Below, one piece after another: positions 14,008 to 32,000 of a stretch of DNA of 32,000 bases (positions are counted from its first letter, which is position 1; the number at the start of each line of letters is the position of its first letter). Where the stretch lies: the NCBI RefSeq assembly GCF_001564455.1, contig NZ_CP011391.1, positions 2,070,001 through 2,102,000 of the forward strand. The letters run 5' to 3'. A program made the translations under genes and the position numbers. Source of the stretch: Faecalibaculum rodentium. Lineage in GTDB: Bacteria > Bacillota_I > Bacilli_A > Erysipelotrichales > Erysipelotrichaceae. The notes beneath the pieces are model-generated. The model had not been told where the DNA came from, made no database searches, and saw only the letters and a list, made by a program, of their open reading frames with translations.

Positions 14008-14339
14008 GGGTTCACTGTACCATTGATTGCCAAAACAGGAAAATGCCGTGGTTGCCGGTGCTGATGGTGAAAGAGGCCGATGGCGGCTTCCGTCGGGCAT
14101 AAGCCGGCATAAGTCCGGGTGATGATGGATGATGCCATCCATTGATGAAGCCGGGAGCATCGTTTGGAAAGACAGGCCTGTCTGACCATCATCGGCAGGG
14201 GAACTTTTGAAACCGGGGCTTTTCAGCCACCATCGGCAGGGAAAACGATACATTTCAGACTGTGGCAGGTTCTGTCGGGCAGGTCCCGGGGTTTGGGGAT
14301 GGGTCTCTTCTATAATGGAGGCATAAGGGGGCGCATTTC

Positions 14340-16307: not shown

Positions 16308-17678
16308 TCAATACGCTCCCTGGTCGCCTTTGCCAAGCATGGACTTGGCGGTGCGGATCAGCAGGACGAAATCCAGCCACAGGTTCCAGTTGCGGTAATA
16401 AAAAGCGTCGAGCTCCAGCCGCTGGTCAAAGTCCACATCGCTGCGTCCGTGAGTCTGCCACATCCCGGTGATGCCGGGTTTCATCGCAATGACATCCTCG
16501 TACTGATCCCCCATGTCTTCTTTCTCCCGCGGAAGATAGGGCCTAGGCCCGACCAGGGACATATCGCCTTTGAGAACGTTGAAAAACTGCGGGAATTCAT
16601 CCAGGGACTTTTCCCGGAGAAACTTCCCTGCTTTCGTGATCCGCGGGTCGTCCTTCAGTTTCTTGTTGACTTCGTATTCTTCGCGAATCGCGGCATCCCG
16701 CTCCATCATCTCTTCGAGGATTGCCTCGGCGCCCGGGACCATAGTGCGGTATTTGTACATTTTGAACAGCCGTCCATCGCGACCAATGCGCTCCTGGACA
16801 AAGAAAATCGGGTCTTTGTCCCCCTGCCGGCGATTGGAGATCCAGACATAGACCGTGAGGGGCACCAGGATCACCATGCCGGGGATCGCCGCAATGATAT
16901 CCGCGATGCGTTTGGCCGCCAGCTGGAAATACGGATCGCGGGTCCGGGACGTGGCAATGAGCAGCGAGCCGTCGAAGTCGTTGATCTGCGATGCGAAGTT
17001 GATCTCCCCGTCAATGCGGGGCATGATGTTGACATTCGGGACCAGATCATAGGCTTTGCCGAAGATGCGCTTCATGTCAGATTTCCCCAGGTCGGGAATC
17101 GCGATCAGGATCGTGTCAATGTCATGATCCGCCACGGCTTTTTCGAGCTTCTGCCAGGGATACACCTTTCGCGGGAGCTTTTCCTCCGTTTCCTGCACCA
17201 CATGAAGCGACGGATCCGAGGAGCAGTCCACGAATCCCAGGGGATCCATGAGGGAGAACCGGTTTCGCCGGCATACGCTGTAAAGCTGCCGTGCTTCGGG
17301 TCCCGTGCCGACGATGAGTACATTGTGCTTCACATGCTTCCAGAACCAGAGATGGGCGTAGCGGTTCAGGATCACCACGACAATGAAGTCAATGGCATAG
17401 AAGAGAGTGAGATAAAAAACATCATGCCATGGGAATCCATGACCATACGAGAACATCATCAAGCTTGCAATATATCCACAAATATAAGATACAAGCAAAA
17501 ATTTCAGTTCATCCCACACCAGCAGTGCCTTGTGGCGGTAGCGCCCGGCAATGAACTGCATCAGCACCCAGACTATCAGGAACCGGAATCGAATGTTCAT
17601 GGGAAAAGGAAACAAAAGAAGCAACAGCCAGGTGCACAGAGTTTCCAGTCCACATTTGATTATTCCCAGTTTGCTCAT
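16308..17678 (-). CDS. Polyprenyl-phosphate sugar phosphotransferase (WbaP/CpsE-type priming transferase)
   Basis: 456 aa with N-terminal TM segments and a C-terminal bacterial sugar transferase domain (RIGRDGRLFKMYKYRTM...DEFPQFFNVLKGDMSLVGPRP...PGITGMWQ). RBS AAAGGAG. Confidence 0.88.
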   Translation of the reverse strand: MSKLGIIKCGLETLCTWLLLLLFPFPMNIRFRFLIVWVLMQFIAGRYRHKALLVWDELKFLLVSYICGYIASLMMFSYGHGFPWHDVFYLTLFYAIDFIVVVILNRYAHLWFWKHVKHNVLIVGTGPEARQLYSVCRRNRFSLMDPLGFVDCSSDPSLHVVQETEEKLPRKVYPWQKLEKAVADHDIDTILIAIPDLGKSDMKRIFGKAYDLVPNVNIMPRIDGEINFASQINDFDGSLLIATSRTRDPYFQLAAKRIADIIAAIPGMVILVPLTVYVWISNRRQGDKDPIFFVQERIGRDGRLFKMYKYRTMVPGAEAILEEMMERDAAIREEYEVNKKLKDDPRITKAGKFLREKSLDEFPQFFNVLKGDMSLVGPRPYLPREKEDMGDQYEDVIAMKPGITGMWQTHGRSDVDFDQRLELDAFYYRNWNLWLDFVLLIRTAKSMLGKGDQGAY

Positions 17679-17795
17679 TGTGTCTCCTTTCGTGACCTGT
17701 GTTTATGGTATACATACGACTGCCCAAATGCTTGATTTGATTAAGTTAAGCAGTCAGTACTATTCTGCCCAGTCAAGATGTAAATAGCTTCTGGA

Positions 17796-18914
17796 CTATT
17801 CCTTGTTTAACGCCAGTTCCCGGTCCGCCATTTCCAGCGCACTGGCTGTCACGGCATCCATGTCGTAGTATTTGTATTCACCCAGACGGCCGCCGAAAAT
17901 CACGTTTTCTTCCTGATTCGCCTTTTCTTTGTAGGCCTGATAGAGCCGCTGGTTTTTCTCATCGTTCACGGGATAATATGGTTCATCTCCCGGCTGCCAT
18001 TCAGAGCTGTATTCCCGGGAAATAATGGTTTTGTCGCTGCCCAGATCCTCGAACCACTTGTGTTCAATGATCCGCGTCCAGGGTGTCTCCCGGTCGGTGT
18101 AGTTCACTGCAGCGTTGCCCTGGAAATTCGGGATATCCAGTGTCTCGGTCTCAAATCGCACGGAGCGGTATTCCAGGGGCCCGAGTTCATACTTGAAATA
18201 CGCGTCGATGGGCCCTGTGTAGACCACTTTGTCTGCCAGAGCGTTCCATTTTTCCCGGTCCTTCAGATAGTCCTCTCCCGTCAGGACTTCGATACCATCC
18301 AGCATGTGTTCAACCATCTGCGTATAGCCGCCAATGGGAATGCCCTGATAGGCCGCATTGAAGTAATTGTTATCAAAAGTAAGCCGTACCGGCAGCCGGC
18401 GGATGATGAAAGACGGCAGCTCGGTGCAGTCCCGTCCCCACTGCTTTTCGGTGTAGCCCTTGATGAGCTTTTCATAGATGTCGCGTCCCACCAGGGAAAT
18501 CGCCTGTTCCTCTAGGTTTTTAGGCTCTCCTTTGATTTCCTGACGCTGTTCCTCGATTTTGGCTGCCGCTTCTTCGGGTGTCACGACGCCCCAAATCTGG
18601 TTGAAGGTATACATGTTGAAGGGCAGCGAATAGAGCTGGCCTTTGTAGTTGGCCACCGGGGAGTTGGTGAAGCGGTTGAATTTCGTGAACCGGTTCAGGT
18701 ACTGCCACACTCGTTCGTTGTTGGTGTGAAAGATATGCGCGCCATAGACATGGACGTGGATGTTGTGCTCTTTCTTCGTGTAGACGTTTCCGGCGATGTG
18801 ATCCCGTTTGTCAATGACGAGCACCGACTTGCCGGCATCTGTCGCCTGTCTGGCAAAGGTGGCACCGTACAGGCCGGATCCCACCACCAGGTAATCGTAG
18901 TGTTTCTGTTTCAT
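17796..18914 (-). CDS. glf: UDP-galactopyranose mutase
   Basis: YDYLVVGSGLYGATFA (FAD-binding fold), HVYGAHIFHTNN, YSLPFNMYTFNQ and GGRLGEYKYYDMD are highly characteristic. RBS GAAGGAGAA. Confidence 0.93.
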   Translation of the reverse strand: MKQKHYDYLVVGSGLYGATFARQATDAGKSVLVIDKRDHIAGNVYTKKEHNIHVHVYGAHIFHTNNERVWQYLNRFTKFNRFTNSPVANYKGQLYSLPFNMYTFNQIWGVVTPEEAAAKIEEQRQEIKGEPKNLEEQAISLVGRDIYEKLIKGYTEKQWGRDCTELPSFIIRRLPVRLTFDNNYFNAAYQGIPIGGYTQMVEHMLDGIEVLTGEDYLKDREKWNALADKVVYTGPIDAYFKYELGPLEYRSVRFETETLDIPNFQGNAAVNYTDRETPWTRIIEHKWFEDLGSDKTIISREYSSEWQPGDEPYYPVNDEKNQRLYQAYKEKANQEENVIFGGRLGEYKYYDMDAVTASALEMADRELALNKE

Positions 18915-19158
18915 AGTGTTTCTCCTTCGAGTATTAAATCTATTTTATTGTTTTCCAGCAGAACAAAAAACCGTGCTTCCAAAATTGTTCCACATCGTCA
19001 GACAAAAGTTCTTTGAAAACGCTTAGCTAAACAACGTCGAACGATTATTCTTAGTAACTTCCATATTTAAGGTACTCTCTCCAATTATGTTCTCAAAAGC
19101 AAAAAGCCCCCTTCGTATTCCATGAAAAGAGCTTTTCCAAATCATTTTATTCCGCCAC

Positions 19159-20949
19159 TCAATACCCGACACCGGGATTGACATAGCCGCCATCTACATA
19201 TCCCGGGTCCGTATACCCCGGATCCACATAACCGGGATCGGTGTACCCGGGATCGACATACCCCGGATCGGTATACACAGGTTCCTGAACCGTCTGGTCA
19301 TACGTCGTATCCTGACCAGTGCCTGGATCCTGCACCGTCACGTTTTCCTCCACCGTCACATCCTGCTCCGGCTGCGGACTCGGTTCATCATTGGCTGGGA
19401 CTTCAGAAGGATCCGCGTTGATTGCTTCCACTTCCTCCGCGCTCTTGCCTTCGATCACCGCTTCGATGCGCTTTTTCGCCGTCACAACCGTTTCATTGTC
19501 CGGGATCATGACAGATGCATTGTTGCCCAGTTCTGCACAGAACTCCGTGGAGCCCTGGCCATCCAGCGAATAGGTGATGAACTGCCAGTCCGGCATTTCC
19601 TTGAGCTGGAACTGGATCAGAGACTGGATCTCATTCTGCGACAAGTCGGTCTGGAAGGCACCGGAAAGTGCATCCATCAGAGCCGGGTAGTTGCCAATCA
19701 CAGACGGGCTAGTGGCTTTCTTCACGATTGCCATCAGCACCTCCTGCTGGTTCTTCACACGCTGGCGGTCGCCATCCTGATAGGCATACCGCTCACGTGC
19801 ATAGCACAGCGCTGCCTGGCCATTCAGGTGGTTGATGCCCTCTGTCACGCCGTAATCCGTGCCGAAGTAGTCATTGGTGTAGAAATGATCCACAGCCAGA
19901 CCCGGCTTGACATCCACATCAATGCCGCCCAGGGCATCCACGAGATTCACGACCGAGGTAAAGTTCACCTTCGCGGTGTAGTTGATGTCGATTCCCAGCA
20001 GCGACTCGATGGTTTTCTTCGTCGTCTCGGTTCCATGCAGACCGGTGTGTGTCAGCTTGTCCTTCGCCCCATTCTGGCAGCCGGCGTCTTCTTCGCAGAC
20101 CGTCGTTACATAGTAGTCACGGGGAATGGATGTCAGAAGCACCGTCCTGGTCACGGGGTTGATCGTGGCCAGCATGTTCACGTCACTGCGGCTGCTTTCC
20201 GCAAAGCCATCCCGGGAATCCACACCGGAGATCAGCACCGTGAAGGGATTTTTCGTGATGTCATCCACGGAATTGGTCGTGGACTTGTTTTCCGTCTTGT
20301 AGGTATAGGTATAGACCACCTGCGTATCTGTCCCGAAGTTCTTGAACTTCTCGTCCTCCAGGTCATTGATGTTCCCGCGATAGGCATCATTCAGAATAAT
20401 CGCCGGCACTTCCTTGTCATAGAGACCGTTCACCATTCCCTGAATGTTGTCATACTGCTTGTCCTGGAACGTCACACCTTTGCCGGAAAGATCCTGAATC
20501 AGTGCCTGGGTGCTCGCCAGGGAGATGCTCTTCAGCGAACCCACCGTCTTGCCCTCCAGATCCTTCTCCGAAGTGATCCCGCTGTCCTTCAGCGCAATCA
20601 CCTGCACCGTTGTCGTGGTTTCATTCCCGAAATCCGTCACGTTTCCCAGAAGCCCCGTGGCCTTGGAAATATAGTAGGTTCCTGTTCCATACACCAGGAT
20701 CATCATGACAGTGATCGTGGTCAGGATGATTTTCGAAGCCGTGCCCCTGGTGAATCCCAGCTGCAGGACCATGACCAGCGCCGCAATGATCAGAATGATC
20801 ACACAGCCGATCATGAGCATGTTTTCCGGCAGCATTCCCAGTTTCACGATCTCCCAAATCAGGAAAGCCGTCAGCAACAGCATGATCGCCGCCAGGATCC
20901 AGGATGCGGTTTTGAAGGCTTTGTTGGATGTTGTCTGTGCTTTTCTCAC
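19159..20949 (-). CDS. LCP family (LytR-CpsA-Psr) polymer-to-cell-wall phosphotransferase with C-terminal DPGY-repeat tail
   Basis: GTG start with GGAGGAA 7 nt upstream and a GTGA overlap with the preceding gene. Three N-terminal TM segments. LCP core: TVLISGVDSR...RSDVNMLATINP...LTSIPRDYYV...INHLNGQAALCYARER. Tail: YTDPGYVDPGYTDPGYVDPGYTDPGYVDGGYVNPGVGY. Confidence 0.85.
   Translation of the reverse strand: MRKAQTTSNKAFKTASWILAAIMLLLTAFLIWEIVKLGMLPENMLMIGCVIILIIAALVMVLQLGFTRGTASKIILTTITVMMILVYGTGTYYISKATGLLGNVTDFGNETTTTVQVIALKDSGITSEKDLEGKTVGSLKSISLASTQALIQDLSGKGVTFQDKQYDNIQGMVNGLYDKEVPAIILNDAYRGNINDLEDEKFKNFGTDTQVVYTYTYKTENKSTTNSVDDITKNPFTVLISGVDSRDGFAESSRSDVNMLATINPVTRTVLLTSIPRDYYVTTVCEEDAGCQNGAKDKLTHTGLHGTETTKKTIESLLGIDINYTAKVNFTSVVNLVDALGGIDVDVKPGLAVDHFYTNDYFGTDYGVTEGINHLNGQAALCYARERYAYQDGDRQRVKNQQEVLMAIVKKATSPSVIGNYPALMDALSGAFQTDLSQNEIQSLIQFQLKEMPDWQFITYSLDGQGSTEFCAELGNNASVMIPDNETVVTAKKRIEAVIEGKSAEEVEAINADPSEVPANDEPSPQPEQDVTVEENVTVQDPGTGQDTTYDQTVQEPVYTDPGYVDPGYTDPGYVDPGYTDPGYVDGGYVNPGVGY
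19162..19290 (-). repeat. Coding tandem repeat (15/30-nt period) specifying the DPGY[TV] pentapeptide tail
   Basis: Repeating ccgggatc(g/c)(g/a)(t/c)(g/a)ta(c/t)ac units are visible in the DNA and as (Y[TV]DPG)n in translation. Confidence 0.8.
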
Positions 20950-21713
20950 GTAGCGTTTCCTCCTGTCAGTTTCTTCAGACCGAACTCTGCCCGGTTCCTC
21001 AGGCGTCTCAGCTGCAGTCTTCGTTTCTGCGCCGCCGTCATCTCTGTCTGGAGCACCGGCAGCGTCTTCACCCGCAGATCACGGGCCCGGACCCAGACAT
21101 TCAGAAGCCGTTCCGCGAGAAATCCGTAAATACGCTTCTGATAGTCGTTGTAGTCCGCAAGATCCACTGACGGTTCCAGTTCCTCCAGGATCTGAAACAG
21201 CCAGCGGCAATAGGCATCGTACCGGTCTTTCCGGCATACCATCATATTATATTGACACAATCCGCCCTGATTCATGACAGAATCGAAAGCCGTCAGCGCA
21301 TCCGGGTCCTGTTTTTCGATGATAGCTCTTACATTGTCCAGATCCTTCGCAAATCCGGACTCATTCGCATACTGTTGATAAACCGTTTCTTTATAAGGCT
21401 CGAACTCCGCCAGCAGGATATCGTGATCTCCCAGCAGCTGTTCGATCTCCGCAGACCGCAGGATCCCCTCCCGGCCCTGGAAATACCGCCGATAGTGGGA
21501 AATCGAAACCACATCGCTCTCGTGGTCGTTTTTCCAGATCCAGTACAGCCCCGTCAGCTCACACCAGTTGGGATTCTTCGCCGAAATCTCATCCCCGGTG
21601 TTATCCCGCAGCCAACCCAGGTCCGGTCCGTTTCCCACTTGCAATGGTGTGTAGTCCGGCAGCTTTGGCGGCGTAAAGGCCTTGTGTGTGATGATATAGT
21701 TCGTGACTTTCAT
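20946..21713 (-). CDS. DUF4422-family glycosyltransferase (putative galactofuranosyltransferase)
   Basis: ITHKAF...YTPLQVGN...RDNTGDEISAKNPNWCELTGLYWIWKN...ISHYRRYF is the signature DUF4422 N-terminal block. ATGA overlap with the upstream GT1. Confidence 0.8.
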   Translation of the reverse strand: MKVTNYIITHKAFTPPKLPDYTPLQVGNGPDLGWLRDNTGDEISAKNPNWCELTGLYWIWKNDHESDVVSISHYRRYFQGREGILRSAEIEQLLGDHDILLAEFEPYKETVYQQYANESGFAKDLDNVRAIIEKQDPDALTAFDSVMNQGGLCQYNMMVCRKDRYDAYCRWLFQILEELEPSVDLADYNDYQKRIYGFLAERLLNVWVRARDLRVKTLPVLQTEMTAAQKRRLQLRRLRNRAEFGLKKLTGGNAT

Positions 21714-22912
21714 GCCTCTGTCCCCTTTTCATCAGATGCCGATGATGGCTGACCGGCTTCGCTGTTATCCGACCGTATACCGGCTTCAGCCGCTCGGTCC
21801 AGATAGAACTGTTCAAAGGCTCTGGCCGCTGCCTTGATTTCATATCCTGCTTCTGCAATCTCCTGAGTCGTATTGCGACGATGCAGGCGGCTTTCATCGA
21901 CCGTCTTCAGAATGGCGTTCGCCCAGATCTCCGGGGAAGATTCCAGGGGTATATACTGCGTCAGTTCCTTGAGCGGCAGCTCCCGGGCCACCGCTGTGGA
22001 TGTGATCACCGGCAGACCCGTTGCCTGGGCTTCCACCCCGACCACCGGCAGACCTTCGAAGAAGGAAGGCAGGACAAAGACATCCATGGCATTCATCAAT
22101 GCCGGGATGTCTTTTCGCAAGCCCAGGAACATTACGGAATCCTCCAGGCCCAGAGTCTTCACTTTGTCCCGGATCTCCGGTTCCAATTCGCCGGCCCCTG
22201 CCAGCAGCAGGATTGCCTCTGGACTCTTCCGGTGCACCGCTGCAAAGATATCGATGAGAAAGGAATGGTTTTTCTGCAGGCTGAACCGTCCCACGTGCCC
22301 CAGAACCGGGGTATTTTCCGGGATCCCCAGCAACTCTCTGGTTTTCTTTCGCAGCGCCGGGTCCAGCCTAAACCGGTCAGTATCCACCGCGTTGCGAATC
22401 ACCGTATACCGCTGGTCCTGGATCACGGACTTCGGGAATTTCCATTCAGCCGCCAGATCCGAACAGGCGAGATAATCCGTGGGGTACTTCAGCAGATACG
22501 GAATGGATAGAGTCTTGATGACGTGATATTTCAGGTTTTTGAATCCCCCGCAGTGGGAGTGCACCACCCGGATTGGTACCTCTGCCTCTGCCGCCAGCTT
22601 CGCGCCTTCCATCAGGGCATAGGTGCTCCCGGAATGAATGTGCACAATGGGATAGGGATGCCTGGACAGGAAGTCCTGCACGGATTCCCGGAAGACCTTG
22701 TTGTTGTTTTCTCCGAAGGGATGATCATACGTGAATACCTGTCCGCCCATGGATTCGATCTCCGCCTTCAGGTCCGGATTGTCGCAGTTGAAGGGTGTCA
22801 GAAAATCCAGCTGCACCTTCTTGCGGTCCATGTTCCGGTACATGTTCATCAGGAAGCTTTCCTGACCGCCGTTGGCCATGGGTTCCCGGAAGACCTCCAG
22901 CACCCGGATCAT
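21710..22912 (-). CDS. Glycosyltransferase family 1 (GT4-type, GT-B fold)
   Basis: 400 aa. N-terminus VLEVFREPMANGGQESF. C-terminal half GHVGRFSLQKNH...LLAGAGELE...VFVLPSFFEGLPVVGVEAQATGLPVI shows the E-x7-E region. Confidence 0.85.
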   Translation of the reverse strand: MIRVLEVFREPMANGGQESFLMNMYRNMDRKKVQLDFLTPFNCDNPDLKAEIESMGGQVFTYDHPFGENNNKVFRESVQDFLSRHPYPIVHIHSGSTYALMEGAKLAAEAEVPIRVVHSHCGGFKNLKYHVIKTLSIPYLLKYPTDYLACSDLAAEWKFPKSVIQDQRYTVIRNAVDTDRFRLDPALRKKTRELLGIPENTPVLGHVGRFSLQKNHSFLIDIFAAVHRKSPEAILLLAGAGELEPEIRDKVKTLGLEDSVMFLGLRKDIPALMNAMDVFVLPSFFEGLPVVGVEAQATGLPVITSTAVARELPLKELTQYIPLESSPEIWANAILKTVDESRLHRRNTTQEIAEAGYEIKAAARAFEQFYLDRAAEAGIRSDNSEAGQPSSASDEKGTEA

Positions 22913-23790
22913 TGTGCTTTCTCCACCCGGGGGTCAAAGGTCAGCCCTTCCCGGGATCCGGACCAGATGATGCCCAGCCGCTCCAGTTTGTGGTCCGGCG
23001 CCTTGATCAGCACCCGCGCAGAATGATAGAGGATTTTCGCTCCCTGGTACAGGATCCGGCTCCCCTTCTCTTTCTTCGCGATATAGACCTCATTGCGGTA
23101 GGCAAAGCGGTATCTGGGCAGTCTTGCAGCGGCATCGGTGGCAATGTTGGACCCTTCGTTGTTGGCAGTCTTGTGAATGACCGTGCTGGCCGGTACATAC
23201 CAGCAGGGAAGCATCTTCGAGAGCCGCCTGGTGTACTCCACGTCATCCCCCCAGATGAAGAACTCGGAAATGGGCAGACCCGCTTTACGGACAGCCGCAG
23301 CCCGCAGCAGAAGGGACACGAAAGTCGCCTGGCGGCAGCGCTGTGGCTTGTCGGCATCCAGGGCGCCTTCCAGCAGTTTCTGTTCGTTCATCCGGCAGCG
23401 GGTTCCGTCTGTCCACAGCACCCGGGAGGACAGGAACCCGAAATCGGGATGGGCTTTGGCCACCCGCATAAGCTGTGTCAGGGAATCCGGCTGCACGATG
23501 CAGTCGTCGTCCATGATCCAGAAGTATTCATACTTCTGTTTCAGAGCTGTCTTCAGGGCAAAGTTGAACCCCCCTGCCCCTCCGAGGTTCGCTCCTGTAT
23601 TGTGATAAATGATCACTCCCTGATCCACAAAGTCCTGCAGAGTATCCTGCGTTCCATCTGTGCTTGCATTGTCAATCACGATGATGTCACATGGGGTCTG
23701 GCTGCAGATTAGAGCTTTGATGCACTCCTTGAGCAGGTCCTTACGATTGTATGTGACAATCAACGCCGCCGTTTCAGCTGTGGATATCAT
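22909..23790 (-). CDS. Glycosyltransferase family 2 (GT-A fold)
   Basis: AALIVTYNRKDLL...IIVIDNASTDGT...NLGGAGGFN...FWIMDDDC shows the DxD-type motifs. Confidence 0.85.
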   Translation of the reverse strand: MISTAETAALIVTYNRKDLLKECIKALICSQTPCDIIVIDNASTDGTQDTLQDFVDQGVIIYHNTGANLGGAGGFNFALKTALKQKYEYFWIMDDDCIVQPDSLTQLMRVAKAHPDFGFLSSRVLWTDGTRCRMNEQKLLEGALDADKPQRCRQATFVSLLLRAAAVRKAGLPISEFFIWGDDVEYTRRLSKMLPCWYVPASTVIHKTANNEGSNIATDAAARLPRYRFAYRNEVYIAKKEKGSRILYQGAKILYHSARVLIKAPDHKLERLGIIWSGSREGLTFDPRVEKAQ

Positions 23791-25003
23791 TGGGCAGCAT
23801 CTCCTTTCTTCTCTCAGTTAACTTGATATAACTGCCTCCAGCCAGAATAAATGGGTTATATAGTGGATTGATAAGCCGGACTTCCACGAATGAGAAGAGC
23901 AGAATCACCACAAAGAAGGCCAGATACAACATGTCGTGGCGCCGATACAGATCCAGTACCACCTGACGACACCAGCTGAATACCAGCAGCAGGAAAATCA
24001 GACCATAGTTTAGCAGAATGTTCAGATAGGAACAATCGACATAGAGATATTGCATACCAGGCTTGTAAGTGATACCCTGACCTGCCCAGACAATGCTCTG
24101 ACCAAAAAAGGACAGGCCATACTTCTGCCAGGCTTCCGCTGCATTGGCAAGCCGCCCGGAGAGGATGTCGTTGAGTTTTCCCATGAATCCTGCGCCCTGG
24201 TACAGGCCAGCCAGCAGCATCGCAACGATGGTCAGGATCACCGGCAGCCAGAGAACGACTAGCTTCACCCACCGGTTTTCCAGCCAGTCAAGCCAGCTCG
24301 GTTTCTGCCACCAGGTCAAGGTAATGACAAGCACGAATATAGTAGTGAAGAATGCCATTTTTGTGTCGGTGAGAATGAACAGAGCCGTGGCCAGCTGCAG
24401 GAGGAAGACGAAGATCCAGCCATTGAGACGCTTTCGTTCCAGGTGTAGAAAGAGCATGGATGCAAACACAAACAGGACTGGGGCGCTGGTGACCCAGGTG
24501 AAGCCCAGGCTGTAGCGGATGCGTTCTGTGTCCATGATCACATTGGGAAACAGGCCCAGGGCTGCAAAGAGCGGTATCATGGTCAGTGTAGCGGTCTGGA
24601 TGATGAGCACCACCCGGAACAGTGTCTTCCGGGGCAGCACTGCCATGGAGCCAACAGCGAGCATCAGAATCATGAATTCCGTACTGCGGGAAAAGAAAAA
24701 GACCAGTCCCGTCACAGCCAGGTAAATCACAAACGGCCAGAGGCGGTACTGTCTAAGTCCCAGGGCACAGAGAATGCACAACGCCATTGCCGCATAGGAT
24801 GCATAGCGCAGAACTAGAAAGACGGTGTCATAAATCTGGTTATAGTATTCGGAGGCAGATTCAATGAGCATTACATTGCCCAGCCAGGAAGACCCCAGGA
24901 AAAGTGCCAGGACAGTGCAAAGAATCAGTACCTGGTACTGTCGATAAAAACAGCCAAACCCGGAATCAGCGAAGCGTTCTGTCAATGTCTCGAAAACTGT
25001 CAT
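23774..25003 (-). CDS. Polysaccharide polymerase (Wzy-like / O-antigen ligase-like multi-pass membrane protein)
   Basis: About 10-12 hydrophobic segments with no soluble domain, sitting between the GT and flippase genes. ATG 25003 is preferred (AAGGGAG 8 nt upstream) over ATG 25021. The call rests on context and topology only. Confidence 0.6.
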   Translation of the reverse strand: MTVFETLTERFADSGFGCFYRQYQVLILCTVLALFLGSSWLGNVMLIESASEYYNQIYDTVFLVLRYASYAAMALCILCALGLRQYRLWPFVIYLAVTGLVFFFSRSTEFMILMLAVGSMAVLPRKTLFRVVLIIQTATLTMIPLFAALGLFPNVIMDTERIRYSLGFTWVTSAPVLFVFASMLFLHLERKRLNGWIFVFLLQLATALFILTDTKMAFFTTIFVLVITLTWWQKPSWLDWLENRWVKLVVLWLPVILTIVAMLLAGLYQGAGFMGKLNDILSGRLANAAEAWQKYGLSFFGQSIVWAGQGITYKPGMQYLYVDCSYLNILLNYGLIFLLLVFSWCRQVVLDLYRRHDMLYLAFFVVILLFSFVEVRLINPLYNPFILAGGSYIKLTERRKEMLPNDIHS

Positions 25004-25004
25004 A

Positions 25005-25784
25005 TCAGAAGCTCCCTTCATACTTTTTTCCGAAGAATTTCGCTTTCAGAAACGCTGTCCCCTTCTTCACCCAGGGAACCGGTTCCATGGAAATCACAGG
25101 GACTTCTCTGTAAGTCAGGTGATTGGTGCTGATCCAGACGTCTAGGAGCAGTTCAGAAATTCGTCCAAACAGCCTGGCCTGAAACGCATCATACCGCCGG
25201 TAATCTACTTCCTTCTGTAGCTGTTTTAATACCCCGAATAGAAATGTGCAGTACTTGTCTGCAAGCTCCTTTTTCATGATGAACATATTGAACATATGAC
25301 TGGATGTGGATTTCAAATGCCGGTCAAAAGCCGGTAGATACTCGGGATACTTTCTGGCGATAATATCTCGGGTTTTATCCAGATCTTCTTTGTAGTGGGT
25401 ATGAGCGTAATGATCCCCGACAGATTCTATATAATAGTGCCTCTTTTTGGGCAGGATGATATCCGTGTTCTCCAGCAGCTTTTCCACCTCTTTGGTGGTC
25501 AGGACCGAGTCAAAAGGTGTTTCTCCCTTGTGCTTACCCTTGAAATGACGTCGGTAATGAGCCAGGCCGATGTAGTCGGTCACCAGGTTCTTCCAGCCCC
25601 AGTACAACCCTGTCAATTCGCAATAGTAGGGATTCAGACTCGATATATTGTCCCCATCGTCATCCCGCTGATAGCCAATAGAGGTTTTGCCGGCTGCACC
25701 AACCTGAACAGGTAGATACATAGAATCACTGGGGATGGTATAGGGCTTGTGTGCGGCAGTAATAATTTTGATCAAAAAAATCAC
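25005..25784 (-). CDS. DUF4422-family glycosyltransferase, second paralog
   Basis: ITAAHKPY...YLPVQVGA...RDDDGDNISSLNPYYCELTGLYWGWKN...LAHYRRHF. GTG start with a GTGA overlap with wzx; an alternative TTG lies 9 nt downstream. GC is lower than in the first paralog. Confidence 0.8.
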   Translation of the reverse strand: MIFLIKIITAAHKPYTIPSDSMYLPVQVGAAGKTSIGYQRDDDGDNISSLNPYYCELTGLYWGWKNLVTDYIGLAHYRRHFKGKHKGETPFDSVLTTKEVEKLLENTDIILPKKRHYYIESVGDHYAHTHYKEDLDKTRDIIARKYPEYLPAFDRHLKSTSSHMFNMFIMKKELADKYCTFLFGVLKQLQKEVDYRRYDAFQARLFGRISELLLDVWISTNHLTYREVPVISMEPVPWVKKGTAFLKAKFFGKKYEGSF

Positions 25785-27235
25785 CTCGGTTTCTCACATG
25801 TTTTTAATAATTTATTCACAACGCTCATGACAATAGACTCTCGGCAGATCAGCAGTGTCAGCACGCAAGTTCCAAAAAACAACAAGGCGCTGACAGCCAG
25901 CTGCCAGAACAGGCTGGAAAGCTGCAATCCTCTCAATCCCCATAATACGAGACTGCCAGCGAAAATCATCAGGATGAGCTCTTTGAACTCGATGGTCTGA
26001 ATGATGGATGTCAGCAGTTTACGTAGATACCAGAACTGAAGCAGTGTGACAGCAAACTCCGCACAAAGTGTACCGATGGCTGCGCCAGAAGCTCCGAGAG
26101 ATGGTATGAGCAGCAGGTTAAGCAGAAAGTCTACTACTGCTCCGAATATTACAGAGCGAAGTACCAGTATTTCCTTCCCGGTGGGGACTAGAACCTGAAT
26201 CCCGGTAATGTTGGAGAGACCGATAAAGACAATGGTGGGCATGAGAATGATCATCGGTGCCACTGCAGGCAGATAGCCCGGTCCTGATAAAAACTCCACC
26301 ACCGGTCTGGCATAGACAGAAAAGTAAATGCAGCAAGGGATGGAAAACAGTAGTACAAAGGAGAAGGCCTTTGATACCAGTGACAGGAATTCTTTCTCTT
26401 TTCCCTGCTCATAATAATAGGAGAGTCTGGGCAGTAGTACAGTCCCCAGCGAGGTCACCAGTGTGACCAGAATGGTCTTGATCTTGATGGCTGCGTTGTA
26501 GTATCCCACCACTTCGTTATCCTTTATGACTCCCAGCATCACCGTATCAAGGTTTGTATAGACGGTGGTTGCAACAGACATGAAAAAGAAGGTGAAGATG
26601 GGATACAAGTGCCGTCGAAAATTCCAGGGTCTGCAGGGATGTAGATTAACCAGTTTCCGCAAGCGAATGAAGTTGAACACAGCTGATCCAAAGGAAGATA
26701 TAACTGTGACCAATCCGTACCAGAGTACATCCCCGGAATTACGGACAAGCAGAAACATGAGAGCCAGCCCCAGGGCCTTGAAGAGTACTGATACAAATGT
26801 GATGTAGGAATACTCTTCCAAGGCCTGGTATACCCAGTTCACGCCGATAACATTCAATAAAATAGCCGCTGAACAGATGGTGTAGAGGGTGGATTCTTCC
26901 CTGAATGTCGGTACGAACCACAAGAGGAGAAAGAATGCTGTATAGGAAATGAGCGCCATGATCAGGTTAATAATCAGCAGTTCCTGAACCGTTTTAGATA
27001 ATTTTTCTTTATTATCCCGGACCTGGGCACATGCCCGGATCCCGTATGATGGTACTCCTAACATTGCAACCATGGTAAAGTAGGAAATCAATGAGGTGCC
27101 CATCGCTACTGCCCCCGTACCGTTGGGTCCTAAAATCCGCGAAACGTAAGGGAAAGTTATAAGTGGGAATAAGACCGAAGAAGCAGTTAAAAAAAAGTTC
27201 ATAAAGAAGTTCAATGCTATTGATTTATTTTTCAT
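25781..27235 (-). CDS. Oligosaccharide flippase (Wzx, MOP superfamily)
   Basis: 484 aa with about 12-14 TM segments and an N-terminus typical of polysaccharide biosynthesis protein family flippases (FFMNFFLTASSVLFPLITFPYVSRILGPNGTG). Confidence 0.8.
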   Translation of the reverse strand: MKNKSIALNFFMNFFLTASSVLFPLITFPYVSRILGPNGTGAVAMGTSLISYFTMVAMLGVPSYGIRACAQVRDNKEKLSKTVQELLIINLIMALISYTAFFLLLWFVPTFREESTLYTICSAAILLNVIGVNWVYQALEEYSYITFVSVLFKALGLALMFLLVRNSGDVLWYGLVTVISSFGSAVFNFIRLRKLVNLHPCRPWNFRRHLYPIFTFFFMSVATTVYTNLDTVMLGVIKDNEVVGYYNAAIKIKTILVTLVTSLGTVLLPRLSYYYEQGKEKEFLSLVSKAFSFVLLFSIPCCIYFSVYARPVVEFLSGPGYLPAVAPMIILMPTIVFIGLSNITGIQVLVPTGKEILVLRSVIFGAVVDFLLNLLLIPSLGASGAAIGTLCAEFAVTLLQFWYLRKLLTSIIQTIEFKELILMIFAGSLVLWGLRGLQLSSLFWQLAVSALLFFGTCVLTLLICRESIVMSVVNKLLKTCEKPR

Positions 27236-27248
27236 AATAATTTATATA

Positions 27249-28344
27249 CTAAGGCACTAAAGGCTTGAATATCCGGATTTTTCTTAGTAGATTGATTAAT
27301 AAGATAGAAATAAAAATAATTAACCAAGGACCAATGAGTCGCCACCAAATTGACGTTTGACTGATGTCCATGAAATGCAATAAACCTAGAAGAACTAGCT
27401 GATGAAGTAAATAGATACCAAAAGTATATGGCCTGAACCATTCAGAAAATCTAATAATTGCTAATTGAATTCTATTTTTTCTATTTTGGCACTTGTTATA
27501 GATCTGTCGAATCAGTATAAAAACAGCAATAGACTGAAGATAGCAAGGGAGATTGTAATAGCCTTTGAAAGTCTCTACAATGTGATTCGCATTTATTGAT
27601 AAGTAGTAAGTTGGAATTAGTTGCATAATAAACCCTATTGTACCCAATATATAAAGTACAATTCTTGTTCTTTTTCTTATGCTGTAATTACCAATTAAAT
27701 ATCCTATTATAAAATATAGATAATAGTTTGCAGATACAGGCATCAACTGAGATACAGAGATTTCAGAAAAAATGTATTACAAATAAATACAGCTACAACA
27801 TTCAGCAAGAATCCCAAAACTGCAAGATATTCAAAAACATGCTTCCTGGATGCATTGGATATATTGGAGAATAACGGAACTGTTATGCAGATAGTAAAAT
27901 AAGGAATGAAAAACCAATATACACTCACTAAGTTTCCATTAATTAGACCATCAATTATTACAGGGAAAGTAATTTCTAAGAGAGGAAACCATTCTAATAC
28001 TATACTTTGATAATAAACGCCTAATACACTCCAAAAAAAATAAGGAATTAATACTTTCATTGCCCGATTCCTCAAGAATCTCTTTGTTCCATTCCTTTCT
28101 ATACTTGGAATCAAAGTTATACCGGAAATCATAAAAAAATTGGAACAGCCCAATAGAGAACTGTTTCAATTATATTTGCTGTCATCCAATATCGAGCTTT
28201 CGGATCAAAATCCCAGAAGCATGTATTCACATGCAGATATACAACAGCTATAGCAGCTGCTACACTTAAAAAATCCACAGTCTTATCAAAATTTGTGAGG
28301 TGTTGGTTCAGCATCTTATCCTTATAATATTCCATAAAAATCAC
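27249..28344 (-). pseudogene. Acyltransferase family 3 (O-acetyltransferase-type) gene split into three ORFs by two -1 frameshifts in homopolymer tracts
   Basis: ORF 28129..28344 ends ...YWAVPIFL* and the next frame reads FFMISGITL. Together these restore the family motif AVPIFFMISG if the A7 tract (28133-28139, T7 on the coding strand) were 8 long. The second break is restored if the A6 tract (27767-27772) were 7 long, giving ...CNTFFSEISVSQLMPVSANYY... The restored length of about 365 aa is typical for the family. Confidence 0.75.
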
Positions 28345-28373
28345 TCTTATCTTTTGACAATTGCGGTATCAAG

Positions 28374-29870
28374 TCACCGCAAGAAATTATCTATGTAGTA
28401 ATTGCTAGGAGAATACAACATGGTGTCCAGTTTTTCCAAACCATACTGTTCAACTAGGGAGTCCTCGGTTTTAAATAGATCCGTTCCCAATCCTAATCTC
28501 TCCGAATCATACTGAACTCCCAAGGCACTCAAAGTCGTTGGAAACATATCCAAAGCGATAAACTCTCTTGAATCGCTTCTCTGAGGTATGGTCGCCGAAT
28601 TAAGAATAGTATAATAAATCGATCTTTTAAAGTCTGAGTCAATTTTTTTTGACCATTCGTCATCCATTGTCAAATGATCACCAACGAGAATAATTGTTGT
28701 ATTAGGATACCACTCTTGAGTCTCACACCATTTCACAAACGAATAGACTCGTTTATCAGAACAGCGGATTACATTGGAATATTGGCTGTCTTCAGTCTGC
28801 TCGCAATCCGGACACAAATATCCATCATAAAAATGAGTATCTGCGGTCAAAATTGTCAGGTTGAATGGTTGCTTATTTTTTAAATCAGACAAGATGTTTT
28901 TGGCATAATCAAACAGCTTTTTATCCTCAAAGCCCCAGTTTTCCCAATACTCTTGTGAAATCAGGCCGTGATTCTTTGCCCAATACACATCTTTGATATC
29001 GTAGTCCCCATGACTTTTGAAGTAGGTGCTTCGGCTGGAATAATTTGCATCGGATCCAAGCAGGAACATATTAGTATATCCGTTGTCTTCCAGAATATTC
29101 CCTAACGCATAGGCGCCAGGAATCACAGTAGCATTTGGATCAAAGTCATCCTGTGCTCTGAAACTCTTGATATTGATCCCTGCAGTCTGTGCTACAAGAG
29201 ATCCCATTGTCCATCCCATGGCTCCCGAAGCCATGAACGAGGATCCTGCTCCAAAGTTTATCCCTTCTTTTCTCAGACGAGATAGATTAGGTATCAAACT
29301 TTTTTCAAAATCCCCTCCATTATTGATGTCATCATAAGTCTGCTCCATCGATTCCATATATATATAGATCAAATTCCGCTTCTGCTCTGGAAATGAAAAA
29401 TGAACAGTTTTAGGATCAACATAATAATCCTGGTAAATTGTACCTGACCCCTGTTGTGCAGTCAGATAAGGACCTATTTTTGAAGCTTTGAATAAGTAGA
29501 ATGAAGATAACGAGAAACAAAGCACAACGATAATCGTTGAGATTAATATTTTCTTATTATTCTGAGTTGTGAATACTGTTTTATACAAACCCCAAAATAA
29601 TAGAACTGTACTTATTATCGGTAAAACCACACACCAGAAAATGCCCTTCATCACTATTTTTTTGTCAGCATTCCCTAATGGCTGAGCAAGATTAAATAGT
29701 ATTTGTTCAAACGATACGTTGGCAAAATTAGATTGCAGATAAAACCCACTAAAGAAAAAAAGGCAAGTCAATAGAATTAAAATAACAGAAATTATAATAA
29801 CGACATATCTTTTCCATTTGTTTTGTCTCATAATTTCCACTATACAACCTGATTTCCAGAATATATCCAA
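28374..29870 (-). CDS. Alkaline-phosphatase-superfamily transferase (LtaS / OpgB phosphoglycerol-transferase-like)
   Basis: N-terminal TM block followed by a sulfatase-type domain: NLIYIYMESMEQ (metal ligand region), GAMGWTMGSLVAQTAG (nucleophile Thr region, OpgB-like), FLLGSDANYS and ILVGDHL. About 30-33% GC in sampled lines. The start may be Met14 (29831). Confidence 0.75.
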   Translation of the reverse strand: MDIFWKSGCIVEIMRQNKWKRYVVIIISVILILLTCLFFFSGFYLQSNFANVSFEQILFNLAQPLGNADKKIVMKGIFWCVVLPIISTVLLFWGLYKTVFTTQNNKKILISTIIVVLCFSLSSFYLFKASKIGPYLTAQQGSGTIYQDYYVDPKTVHFSFPEQKRNLIYIYMESMEQTYDDINNGGDFEKSLIPNLSRLRKEGINFGAGSSFMASGAMGWTMGSLVAQTAGINIKSFRAQDDFDPNATVIPGAYALGNILEDNGYTNMFLLGSDANYSSRSTYFKSHGDYDIKDVYWAKNHGLISQEYWENWGFEDKKLFDYAKNILSDLKNKQPFNLTILTADTHFYDGYLCPDCEQTEDSQYSNVIRCSDKRVYSFVKWCETQEWYPNTTIILVGDHLTMDDEWSKKIDSDFKRSIYYTILNSATIPQRSDSREFIALDMFPTTLSALGVQYDSERLGLGTDLFKTEDSLVEQYGLEKLDTMLYSPSNYYIDNFLR

Positions 29871-30187
29871 AAAGTGACTTCTTATTTTTTACTGTTTCTT
29901 TTAACTCGTAGAATATCATTGTTTTTATAATTTCATTTATTAAAATCGTTATATGTTAGATATAGTTACAAAGTTATATCAGTCAGGTCTAAGAGAAGGA
30001 AAAAGAGAATCGAAACAAGTGAAGGAAATATCTTAAATAGAACTGACTATTCCGATAACCTTTAGAATATTTATATTTAACAATATTATCATTAATGCAC
30101 TGATTAAAGTGTTATTTTATACTGTCAGACCGCTTATTTGATATAGAGCGAAATTTGCAATTTTTCAGTCTTTCACACTATCTCAGT

Positions 30188-32000
30188 TCACCAACTCTCC
30201 ACCACCATCTCCAGCAGCTCCGCAGCTGCCACTTTATCCTTCACCCGAATCAGATGGTTCCAGGCATCCTCCGGACCTAACAGGTTGATGCCGCCATCCC
30301 ACACCAGTTCCCTGTCGATCACCGCAAACGGATCAACCGGATCATCCAGCTCCCGGACGGAAAAACCTGCTTCTTTCAACCGGCGGATCGCTGCATCCTT
30401 GGTCCCTTCCCAGCCATCATCGGCAGTAGTGAAAATGACAACGTCCACTTCATTCCTGCCTTCCATAGCCTGAAGCACTTTCTCTGCCCTGGAAAGAGTG
30501 ATGGCAGGACTGGAAATTACGACTTCCTTTCTGGACTCCCGGAGATCCTGGAGGAAGGCATCCAGATAGTTGTCCAGGTCGAATATCGCATTGACGGTCT
30601 GGGATACCGCAGGATCTGTTGTCTGCAGCTGCCAGGCCGCCTTTTTGTATGTCTTCAGACGCTTTCGATACATCCCCTGGAATACCGGAATCCGCCGGTC
30701 AATGTAGTCATATACCTGCACTGTCTTCTTTCCGGGGTAGTCCCTGTTCAGCCGGCCGAGGAACTGCAGAAGCAGCCCTTCAAAGGCAATGGGTGATACA
30801 AGAAACAGGGTATCGAGCCGGGGATAGCTGAATCCTTCTCCGATTTTCTGGCCTGTGGCAATGATGAGAACTGATTCGTTGTCCGGAACTCTCTTCAGCT
30901 GACTCAGCTGTTCCCTGTTCTCTTTCTCAGAGTTGTCTCCATAAACCAGGAACAGATGATCTGCACTTCCTTCCAGGTGTCTGGCCAGCGTGGCTGCATG
31001 TGATTTCAGCCTTACGAATATGGCACAGGTATGACCTTCTGCAAGGGCCTGACGGACATCACCTGCAATCAGTTCGTTTCTCACAGGATCCTGTGCAATG
31101 TATTCATACAGCTCGTAGATGGCTGGCTTTTCTTCCCGCAGGCAGAGGCTGCGGGTAAACCGCGGGATAAGGAGCCTCTGCAGGTTCTGGCTCTTCGCCT
31201 TATCCATGGCACTGTAGGTGTGCCGAATATCGCCAATGAACATGGTGATAAGAGGATCCAGCTTGTCCGCCCGTTTCGGTGTGGCTGTCATGCCGTAGAG
31301 ATACGCAGGAGAAATCCGGTCCAGGATCTTTCGAAAGGTCGGAGATGCTGCATGGTGGCATTCATCCACGATGACCATTCCATAGCGGTCAGGAATGGAA
31401 TCCATGTTTCCCAGTGTCTGTGCCATGGCGATATCCACAAGGCCTGTCATGGTGTTTTTGGATCCCTTCAGGACACCGATGTGGCTTTTTCGCCTTCTGG
31501 TTTTCCCAGCCTTTGTCCGATACTCCGGAAGGGGTTCATCAAATTTCAAAAACTCCTCCAGCTCTTGCTGCCACTGTTCCAGAAGTGCGGTCTTTTCAAT
31601 GAGAATCAGCGTATTGACCTTCCTGTGCGCTATCAGGCTGGCTGCCACAACGGTTTTTCCGAAGGAAGTGGCGGCAGAGAGAATTCCATAGTCGTATTTC
31701 AGCAGTTCTTCCTGCGCTGCCTGCTGTTCCTGTCGGAGCGAACCCTGGAATTCAACGCGAAGCCATGCTCCCTTTTGCCGTTTGTCTCTGATCCGATAGT
31801 CGATGCGGCTGCTTTCCAGCCGGTGTTTCAGCGTATCCCGTATTCCACGGGGCAGCCGGATATAGCCGTCCACATCGCTGCCGATATACAGGATGCGGGG
31901 TGTGTTCCAGTTGGAATATCCAAAGCGTGTGTTCTCATACCAGGCGGGATTTGCCATGGCTGCCAGATTCCGAATCTGATTCTGCAGTCTGGGATGGAGT
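30188..32000 (-). CDS. SF2 helicase (DEAD/DEAH, ResIII-like), 5' end outside the window; degenerate PLD-like C-terminal domain
   Basis: Motif I AATSFGKT, motif II VDECHH, motif III GMTATP and motif VI QFLGRLNR. The frame stays open upstream of the Met at 31957 to the window edge (...LHPRLQNQIRNLAAMANP...). The last 114 aa (30188-30532) follow a PLD-like pattern without the HxK dyad. Confidence 0.8.
   Translation of the reverse strand, partial: LHPRLQNQIRNLAAMANPAWYENTRFGYSNWNTPRILYIGSDVDGYIRLPRGIRDTLKHRLESSRIDYRIRDKRQKGAWLRVEFQGSLRQEQQAAQEELLKYDYGILSAATSFGKTVVAASLIAHRKVNTLILIEKTALLEQWQQELEEFLKFDEPLPEYRTKAGKTRRRKSHIGVLKGSKNTMTGLVDIAMAQTLGNMDSIPDRYGMVIVDECHHAASPTFRKILDRISPAYLYGMTATPKRADKLDPLITMFIGDIRHTYSAMDKAKSQNLQRLLIPRFTRSLCLREEKPAIYELYEYIAQDPVRNELIAGDVRQALAEGHTCAIFVRLKSHAATLARHLEGSADHLFLVYGDNSEKENREQLSQLKRVPDNESVLIIATGQKIGEGFSYPRLDTLFLVSPIAFEGLLLQFLGRLNRDYPGKKTVQVYDYIDRRIPVFQGMYRKRLKTYKKAAWQLQTTDPAVSQTVNAIFDLDNYLDAFLQDLRESRKEVVISSPAITLSRAEKVLQAMEGRNEVDVVIFTTADDGWEGTKDAAIRRLKEAGFSVRELDDPVDPFAVIDRELVWDGGINLLGPEDAWNHLIRVKDKVAAAELLEMVVESW

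Follow-up and report, generated by a model that had tools for sequence, protein, structure and literature searches.

A putative polysaccharide O-acyltransferase gene of the acyltransferase-3 (AT3) family in Faecalibaculum rodentium is most probably a slippage-made pseudogene, whose two single-base deletions are fixed in a common lineage of this species; we put the probability of this reading at about 85%. The gene lies in the window, that is, the 32,000-nucleotide stretch of contig NZ_CP011391.1 (positions 2,070,001 to 2,102,000) that was analysed. Both lesions are real and do not vary between independent samples or haplotypes, and the gene was intact in its ancestral state. F. rodentium is a mouse commensal that has been studied widely; we found no paper on its capsule, its polysaccharide locus or its AT3 gene.

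The AT3-gene (PF01757) pseudogene occupies positions 27249–28335 on the minus strand (1087 nt, compared with 1089 nt and 362 aa for the intact allele) and is read as three consecutive ORFs in three different frames. Fragment 1 (28129–28335, minus strand; ORF 28129–28344 with the ATG at 28335) encodes 68 aa (MEYYK...AVPIFL), ends with TGA and covers TMH1, including His35, and the larger part of TMH2. Fragment 2 (27743–28132, minus strand; ORF 27743–28153 with the ATG at 28132) encodes 129 aa, running from MISGITL to NTFF and then into LKSLYLS; these last seven residues are out-of-frame. Fragment 3 (27249–27743, minus strand; ORF 27249–27746 with the ATG at 27743) encodes 164 aa (MPVSANYY...KPLVP). 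The exact protein of fragment 1 (P0122) is found on 109 contigs, and that of fragment 2 (P0123) on 49 contigs. The delimitation of the whole pseudogene is based on the match of the repaired translation to PF01757 and on the intact alleles P0131 and P0001, which share its syntenic position.

The frame is lost in two T tracts of the coding strand. Lesion 1 (28133–28139, minus strand) is a T7 run, seen as A7 on the plus strand, where both intact alleles have T8; the coding strand at this first junction reads CCA ATT TTT TTA TGA, and the lesion falls inside the I-F-F codons (codons 66–68) of the FFXISG motif. Lesion 2 (27767–27772, minus strand; codons 189–191) is a T6 run; here the sequence is T7 (F-F-S) in the closest intact allele and T6CC (F-F-P) in the distant one. 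A third long run, T8 at 28033–28040 on the same strand, is in frame and does not differ in length between the window and the closest intact allele. The pseudogene has no stops or indels beyond the two frameshifts; the exception is the MAG L019, with a deletion of 194 bp.

With one T added to each tract, the gene encodes a 362-aa protein that matches Pfam profile PF01757 (Acyl_transf_3) from end to end (profile positions 4–324 of 326, E = 2e-32, 113 bits with a gathering score of 31 bits). This agrees with the original prediction, which had read the three minus-strand ORFs as a single acyltransferase-3 protein. Fragments 2 and 3 alone match consecutive parts of the profile (positions 53–175, E = 2.6e-11, and positions 188–324, E = 8.2e-11, respectively), and the full profile is matched by both intact alleles, P0131 and P0001. 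By the Pfam definition, the predicted product of the repaired gene belongs to the AT3 (PF01757) family. There is no NCBIfam equivalog for the repaired protein, the best model being NolL with 20 bits at a cut-off of 425, and a PDB sequence search with the intact allele gave no match.

The conserved motifs of AT3 proteins are R/K-X10-H in TMH1, FFXISG in TMH2, and RXXR after TMH2 (PMC7448272). An extra T in tract 1 had been proposed to bring back the family motif, and it does: the repaired segment AVPIFFMISG is invariant among eight aligned homologues, as is the FFXISG motif within it (F67-F68-M-I-S-G72), which in the unrepaired window is cut by lesion 1 into ...PIFL, a stop, and then MISG.... 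The TMH1 histidine H35 is present and invariant, and the basic motif after TMH2 is present as K85-R86-F-L-R89-N-R91, with R81 and R91 invariant in the alignment. The R/K-X10-H motif is incomplete, with Ser at position 24 and the nearest upstream basic residue at K18. Since Ser24 is also found in the aligned intact relatives, the missing basic residue appears to be a trait of the clade rather than a sign of decay. R/K-X10-H is a catalytic motif of the characterised members and not a Pfam criterion, and the assignment to the AT3 domain family stands; details of acyl-donor binding may differ from those in the characterised proteins.

The repaired protein has an AT3-only architecture of approximately 360 aa with no SGNH domain, like Oac of Shigella phage Sf6 and WbaK. 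It shares with these two proteins and with Salmonella OafA/OafB a full-length PF01757 domain, the TMH1 histidine (H35), FFXISG (F67–G72) and an RXXR-type motif (R86-F-L-R89). Unlike the characterised AT3 O-antigen acetyltransferases, it has Ser at the basic position of R/K-X10-H, and it shows low sequence identity to all named proteins. The gene neighbourhood suggests O-acyl transfer to a surface glycan as the predicted role.

The pseudogene is part of a low-GC cassette (27200–30199; 27–45% GC versus approximately 45–60% on either side), which contains exactly the AT3 pseudogene, an upstream phosphoglycerol-transferase-like gene and the leader of the latter. The upstream gene (28374–29870, minus strand) is intact in the window and encodes a 498-aa membrane protein with a sulfatase fold (PF00884, E = 1e-18); its match to the NCBIfam family of phosphoglycerol transferase I has E = 2e-47 and is below the family cut-off. 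Downstream, a gene for a Wzx-type flippase (25781–27235, minus strand; PF01943, PF13440, PF03023) starts 13 nt past the AT3 stop, which places the pseudogene inside a polysaccharide operon. Nearby genes of this cell-surface polysaccharide locus, at whose edge the cassette lies, encode glycosyltransferases, LytR-CpsA-Psr, Glf and a priming transferase. An Rfam scan of the window gave no match.

The cassette is probably of horizontal origin, because its GC content is foreign and its relatives are distant: outside the F. rodentium alleles the nearest AT3 relatives are at most 42% identical, and the two of them with a named source come from Agathobacter and Methanobrevibacter. A scan of genome contigs with the repaired protein found only relatives with at most 35% identity (Lachnospiraceae, Collinsella, Haemophilus and Weissella), the best of them in a Lachnospiraceae MAG at 35%, and no F. 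rodentium locus; the species representative in the scanned genome set evidently lacks this allele. The state of the phosphoglycerol-transferase-like gene varies by lineage. In sister lineages it has been degraded independently, consistent with an accessory module that the cell can do without. The 286-aa "sulfatase" calls in two assemblies (L011 and L015), at first considered as mutations of this gene, turned out to be start choices of the gene caller.

Two intact alleles reveal what was lost. The closest one, P0131, encodes 362 aa, has 97.9% nucleotide identity to the window gene and is found in four Logan assemblies (L083–L086); it is the sole full-length member of the 90% cluster that holds the fragments of the window. 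Twenty-three substitutions and precisely two indels (T8 versus T7 and T7 versus T6) separate the window gene from it. The original prediction that T7 at 28133–28139 and T6 at 27767–27772 are single-T contractions is thereby confirmed. The distant allele P0001, found by a protein search with the repaired query, encodes 361 aa and has 81% amino-acid and 83% nucleotide identity; its tracts 1 and 2 read T8 and T6CC, respectively. Its locus has the same position and contains genes for a helicase, the sulfatase-fold enzyme, AT3, a Wzx flippase, DUF4422, glycosyltransferases, LytR-CpsA-Psr and Glf. From this 83%-identical allele with its F-F-P codons, lesion 2 could be taken for the loss of a C from the CC pair; this interpretation was dropped given the T7 (F-F-S) of the 97.9%-identical allele.

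The intact allele contains only three runs of seven or more bases (T8, T8 and T7), which make up 23 of its 1089 nt, and both indels fall inside them. If two indels were placed uniformly, the chance that both hit such runs would be approximately (0.021)^2 = 4.5e-4, and we infer that both lesions are slippage mutations. The runs themselves are not significantly enriched, with three observed versus a mean of 1.3 after synonymous-codon shuffling (P = 0.08), and both mutated tracts encode conserved Phe residues. Tracts of this type are capable of switching reversibly, and the species does have an intact T8/T7 allele.

Homopolymer under-calling would be a trivial explanation of the same pattern, with a true genome of T8/T7 and an intact gene, and an assembly error of this kind was one of the options left by the original prediction. 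The three fragments are also found on a contig of 2,542,486 bp, which matches the published size of the complete genome of strain ALO17; that genome was assembled from PacBio RS II C2 reads alone, an indel-prone chemistry (PMC4752744). The metagenome data agree with the isolate, however. At least 12 independent assemblies (Logan/SRA, ENA and NCBI MAGs) match the region 27200–28400, including both lesions, with 100% identity. Among them are L011–L015, L017, L018, L020–L022 and L024 (for L014 and L015 the identity covers the 1163 bases present on their contigs), and two more (L016 and L023) have one substitution each. The matching contigs come from different studies, from different SRA/ENA run series, from NCBI MAGs and from other assembly pipelines, and presumably, given how these sources are built, from short, low-indel reads. 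The same T7/T6 configuration is present on two further haplotypes, and the rest of the cassette (28345–30190) is 100% identical in seven of the matching assemblies. We regard the chance of a sequencing error as negligible. JGI metagenome data gave 0 matches, both to a pattern in which the tract lengths were left free and to a 38-mer that all three alleles share.

The suggested comparison of tract lengths in related strains was made on 34 F. rodentium loci. Twenty of these are T7/T6 (with T7 at tract 1 in all, and T6 at tract 2 wherever tract 2 is readable), and 14 are intact, four with T8/T7 and ten with T8/T6CC; there are no intermediates. A 122-aa protein, P0133, that looked like a tract-2 length variant was rejected, as its contig (L088) ends 22 nt past an unrelated junction inside the tract. 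In the collection, fragment 3 is found in 278 blocks and the second broken haplotype, P0125, in 108, compared with 132 for the intact P0001 and four contigs only for P0131; the broken allele family is thus the commonest form of the locus in public (mouse-gut) data.

These counts bear on the possibility that the gene is a phase-variable contingency gene, in which reversible slippage in the T tracts toggles O-acylation and the window captures an OFF/OFF state. The original prediction had offered phase variation alongside decay, and the location of both lesions in homopolymer runs and the existence of a T8/T7 ON state in the species are what it would lead one to expect. The neighbouring gene has an A8 tract that reads A9 in two MAGs of otherwise 99.7% identity, a polymorphism between near-identical strains, so homopolymers of the cassette are mutable on short time scales. 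There are also precedents: several lesions of pneumococcal wciG (35B/35D) are 1-bp indels in 6–7-bp homopolymers, with interconversion suspected (PMC6018339), and H. influenzae oafA, an AT3 gene with a phase-variable tetranucleotide repeat, was frameshifted in the first sequenced strain (PMC9558356).

Tract lengths that switch should vary between samples, but T7/T6 is found in 20 of 20 loci of the broken allele family, from at least 10 run-accession series and on three DNA haplotypes; consensus assemblies are blind to minority ON cells and to tract-length variants within a population. Exact look-ups among approximately 15 billion proteins, made for four protein variants of the broken allele (window, L089, L087 and L016 types), found no fully repaired protein and none repaired at tract 1 or at tract 2 only. 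The ON states are confined to alleles that are 2.1% or 17% diverged, and the only T8/T7 allele, being 23 substitutions away, is not a recent revertant. Furthermore, the two lesions coexist, and two independent +1 events would be needed to restore the frame. The tracts are short (7–8), lie at codons 66–68 and 189–191 rather than at the 5' end, encode conserved residues and are not significantly over-represented. Phase variation therefore seems unlikely to us; the part of the original prediction that is upheld is the decaying acetylation gene, with its broken T7/T6 allele fixed across samples and haplotypes.

The relationships of the alleles point the same way. In a tree with allele B as the outgroup, the intact L083 branch has 11 derived changes and the broken clade has three shared ones; within the clade, L087 has no private changes and the window has eight. 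L087 thus has both lesions on an ancestral-like haplotype, eight substitutions from the window, and the OFF state is kept across 0.7% sequence divergence. On this tree, one ON-to-OFF change per tract accounts for all the data. One OFF haplotype (L089–L091) has both lesions and three further substitutions, all three nonsynonymous; one of these, P264S, hits a residue that is invariant among homologues.

The DNA changes in the broken clade are eight nonsynonymous and four synonymous, small numbers that look compatible with neutrality. The nonsynonymous to synonymous counts, also small, are 5:6 on the broken lineage versus 6:5 on the intact lineage. Given these two ratios, either the decay is young or the counts are too few to read.

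The low level of further damage leads to another possibility, that the gene is not dead: the three ORFs could be translated by termination–reinitiation and assemble as a split AT3 enzyme, or slippage on the T runs, during transcription or on the ribosome, could produce some full-length protein. Together the three ORFs keep residues 1–67, 69–191 and 199–362, that is, 354 of 362, and have lost only F68 and an unconserved 7-residue loop; no extra stops or indels have accumulated. At both junctions the stop of one fragment overlaps the start of the next (ATGA at 28129–28132 between fragments 1 and 2, and TGATG at 27741–27745 between fragments 2 and 3). Such overlaps are unremarkable, since 15% of all possible 1-nt deletions in the gene would give a stop overlapping a native ATG. 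Junction 1 splits the FFXISG motif in TMH2 (PMC7448272), and fragment 2 would have to start in the middle of a helix. The loss of an invariant Pro in a widespread OFF haplotype, where three of three changes are nonsynonymous, also speaks against a protein that still functions. RNA polymerase generally slips to an appreciable extent only where a run reaches about 8–9 bases or more, and here one molecule would have to be rescued twice. All this makes residual function very unlikely. We speculate that a three-piece split AT3, or low-level slippage on the T runs, could lead to leaky, population-heterogeneous acylation hidden from consensus assemblies, and consider this very unlikely as well.

We propose that the fixed pseudogene arose as follows. 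In the ancestor the gene was intact, with tracts of T8 and T7 as in P0131. Replication slippage would then have removed one T from each of two Phe-codon runs (ATT TTT TTT and TTT TTT TCT), which would be incidental to the Phe codons of an AT-rich, probably horizontally acquired gene. Lesion 1 truncates the protein within FFXISG of TMH2, so that a functional acyltransferase is not expected and enzyme activity was presumably lost. With no functional enzyme, the polysaccharide of this lineage would be expected to have no acyl decoration. The double-lesion allele would then have spread to become the commonest one at the locus.

The case adds one more example to a known phenomenon, routine homopolymer slippage inactivating an accessory gene. 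In Streptococcus pneumoniae, as here, an O-acetyltransferase gene of a Wzx/Wzy-type locus is knocked out, either wciG (35B to 35D) or wcjE (11A to 11E, 33A/33F). Inactivation of wcjE defines serotype 11E (PMC4072641), and for wciG 20 lesion patterns were found in 29 isolates (PMC6018339). The pneumococcal lesions are many, independent, sporadic and single, whereas F. rodentium has one double-lesion allele in most sampled members of the lineage. In pneumococcus the knock-out gives a non-acetylated glycan variant; in F. rodentium a corresponding loss is predicted from the sequence. H. influenzae oafA is likewise an AT3 surface-glycan O-acetyltransferase whose frame is set by repeat slippage, but its repeat is a dedicated multi-copy tetranucleotide, and its ON/OFF switching has been documented both inside single hosts and from host to host; F. 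rodentium has short Phe-coding T runs, two coexisting lesions and no length polymorphism within the broken allele family. The F. rodentium gene thus appears to share the mechanism of its lesions with the wciG/wcjE group, and with oafA the family but not the behaviour.

The three F. rodentium fragments that carry the RefSeq name "acyltransferase family protein" (WP_350309576.1 and WP_289967282.1) all belong to a single pseudogene and are not to be counted as genes. The 3-kb decoration module as a whole appears in at least four states: with both genes intact, with the acyltransferase broken, with both broken, and with a decayed phosphoglycerol-transferase-like gene and an intact acyltransferase. 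Since the state of the module varies, laboratory strains may differ in the acylation or glycerophosphorylation of their glycans, and such differences between strains could alter recognition by phages or antibodies.

The low-GC block (window 27200-30199) spans 3 kb and has sharp edges, with a GC content of 27-45% compared with about 45-60% around it. It holds only the acyltransferase pseudogene (window 27249-28335, minus strand), the phosphoglycerol-transferase-like gene (window 28374-29870, minus strand) and the leader of the latter, and is probably an imported decoration module. In the 362-aa repaired protein, obtained by adding one T to each of the two contracted tracts of the pseudogene, codon 24 (window about 28264-28266) encodes Ser. 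This position is occupied by the Arg/Lys of the TMH1 R/K-X10-H motif in characterised AT3 acetyltransferases, but by Ser in the present AT3 clade, its intact members included.

The state of the two genes differs among F. rodentium lineages. In the window the acyltransferase is broken and the phosphoglycerol-transferase-like gene is intact, while the reverse is seen in loci with the intact 361-aa acyltransferase P0001 (L001-L010). The degraded phosphoglycerol-transferase-like gene of these loci (about 8470-9962 in L001 coordinates) carries six in-frame stops among codons 1-300 and changes frame near codon 298; aligned with the window, it shows 33 gap openings. Decay of the two-gene module is accordingly reciprocal between lineages. 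Both genes are intact in L083-L085, which carry the closest intact acyltransferase allele; the 5' part of the phosphoglycerol-transferase-like gene is missing in L086, a further carrier of this allele.

The phosphoglycerol-transferase-like gene contains a homopolymer run of its own, A8 on the coding strand (window 28643-28650). The run is A9 in L012 and L013, two MAGs that are otherwise ~99.7% identical, and the gene is consequently frameshifted near codon 408. In lineages with an intact acyltransferase the run is interrupted (AAAAAGAA). A G-to-A change has thus produced a slippery run, and in some strains this run has slipped already, unless the A9 runs of L012 and L013 are MAG errors.

Two assemblies show further changes in the acyltransferase pseudogene. 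An extra 194-bp deletion, equivalent to window 27533-27726, is present in L019 (NCBI MAG GCA_948910895.1) and reflects either continued decay or an artefact of the MAG assembly. The 3.7-kb Logan contig L088 switches to unrelated sequence exactly within tract 2 (window about 27768) and ends 22 nt on; the switch may mark the junction of an insertion or be an artefact of the assembly graph, 22 nt being too short to tell.

The polysaccharide locus downstream (window 17000-27235) is mosaic among F. rodentium assemblies, the identity of L001, L003, L011 and L083 to the window varying by segment from 88% to 99.99%. Across these loci, gene calls for the flippase (window 25781-27235, minus strand) give a length of 484 or 440 aa, and in one locus group Gtf3-like and GT2 (352 aa) genes replace the DUF4422, GT4 and GT2 genes of the window. 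A 415-aa ORF within the polysaccharide operon (window 23774-25021, minus strand) has no match in Pfam or NCBIfam and, judged from its position, may be the Wzy-type polymerase.

The low-GC cassette is adjoined by a large minus-strand helicase gene with AEP-TOTE, DEAD and ResIII domains (window 30188-32000, continuing past the window end); its product is 892-964 aa long in relatives. The relatives differ directly upstream of the helicase (L018, L022 and L025 at 96-1658): in some this place is taken by a reverse transcriptase of the group II intron type (RVT_1 and GIIM domains), in others by a cluster of MqsA-like HTH genes. Elsewhere in the window, a segment of about 62% GC contains a 904-aa ORF (11539-14253, minus strand) in which translational GTPase domains resembling those of EF-G/Tet(M) (GTP_EFTU, EFG_IV, EFG_C) are joined to a C-terminal YacP-like NYN nuclease domain, an unusual fusion.
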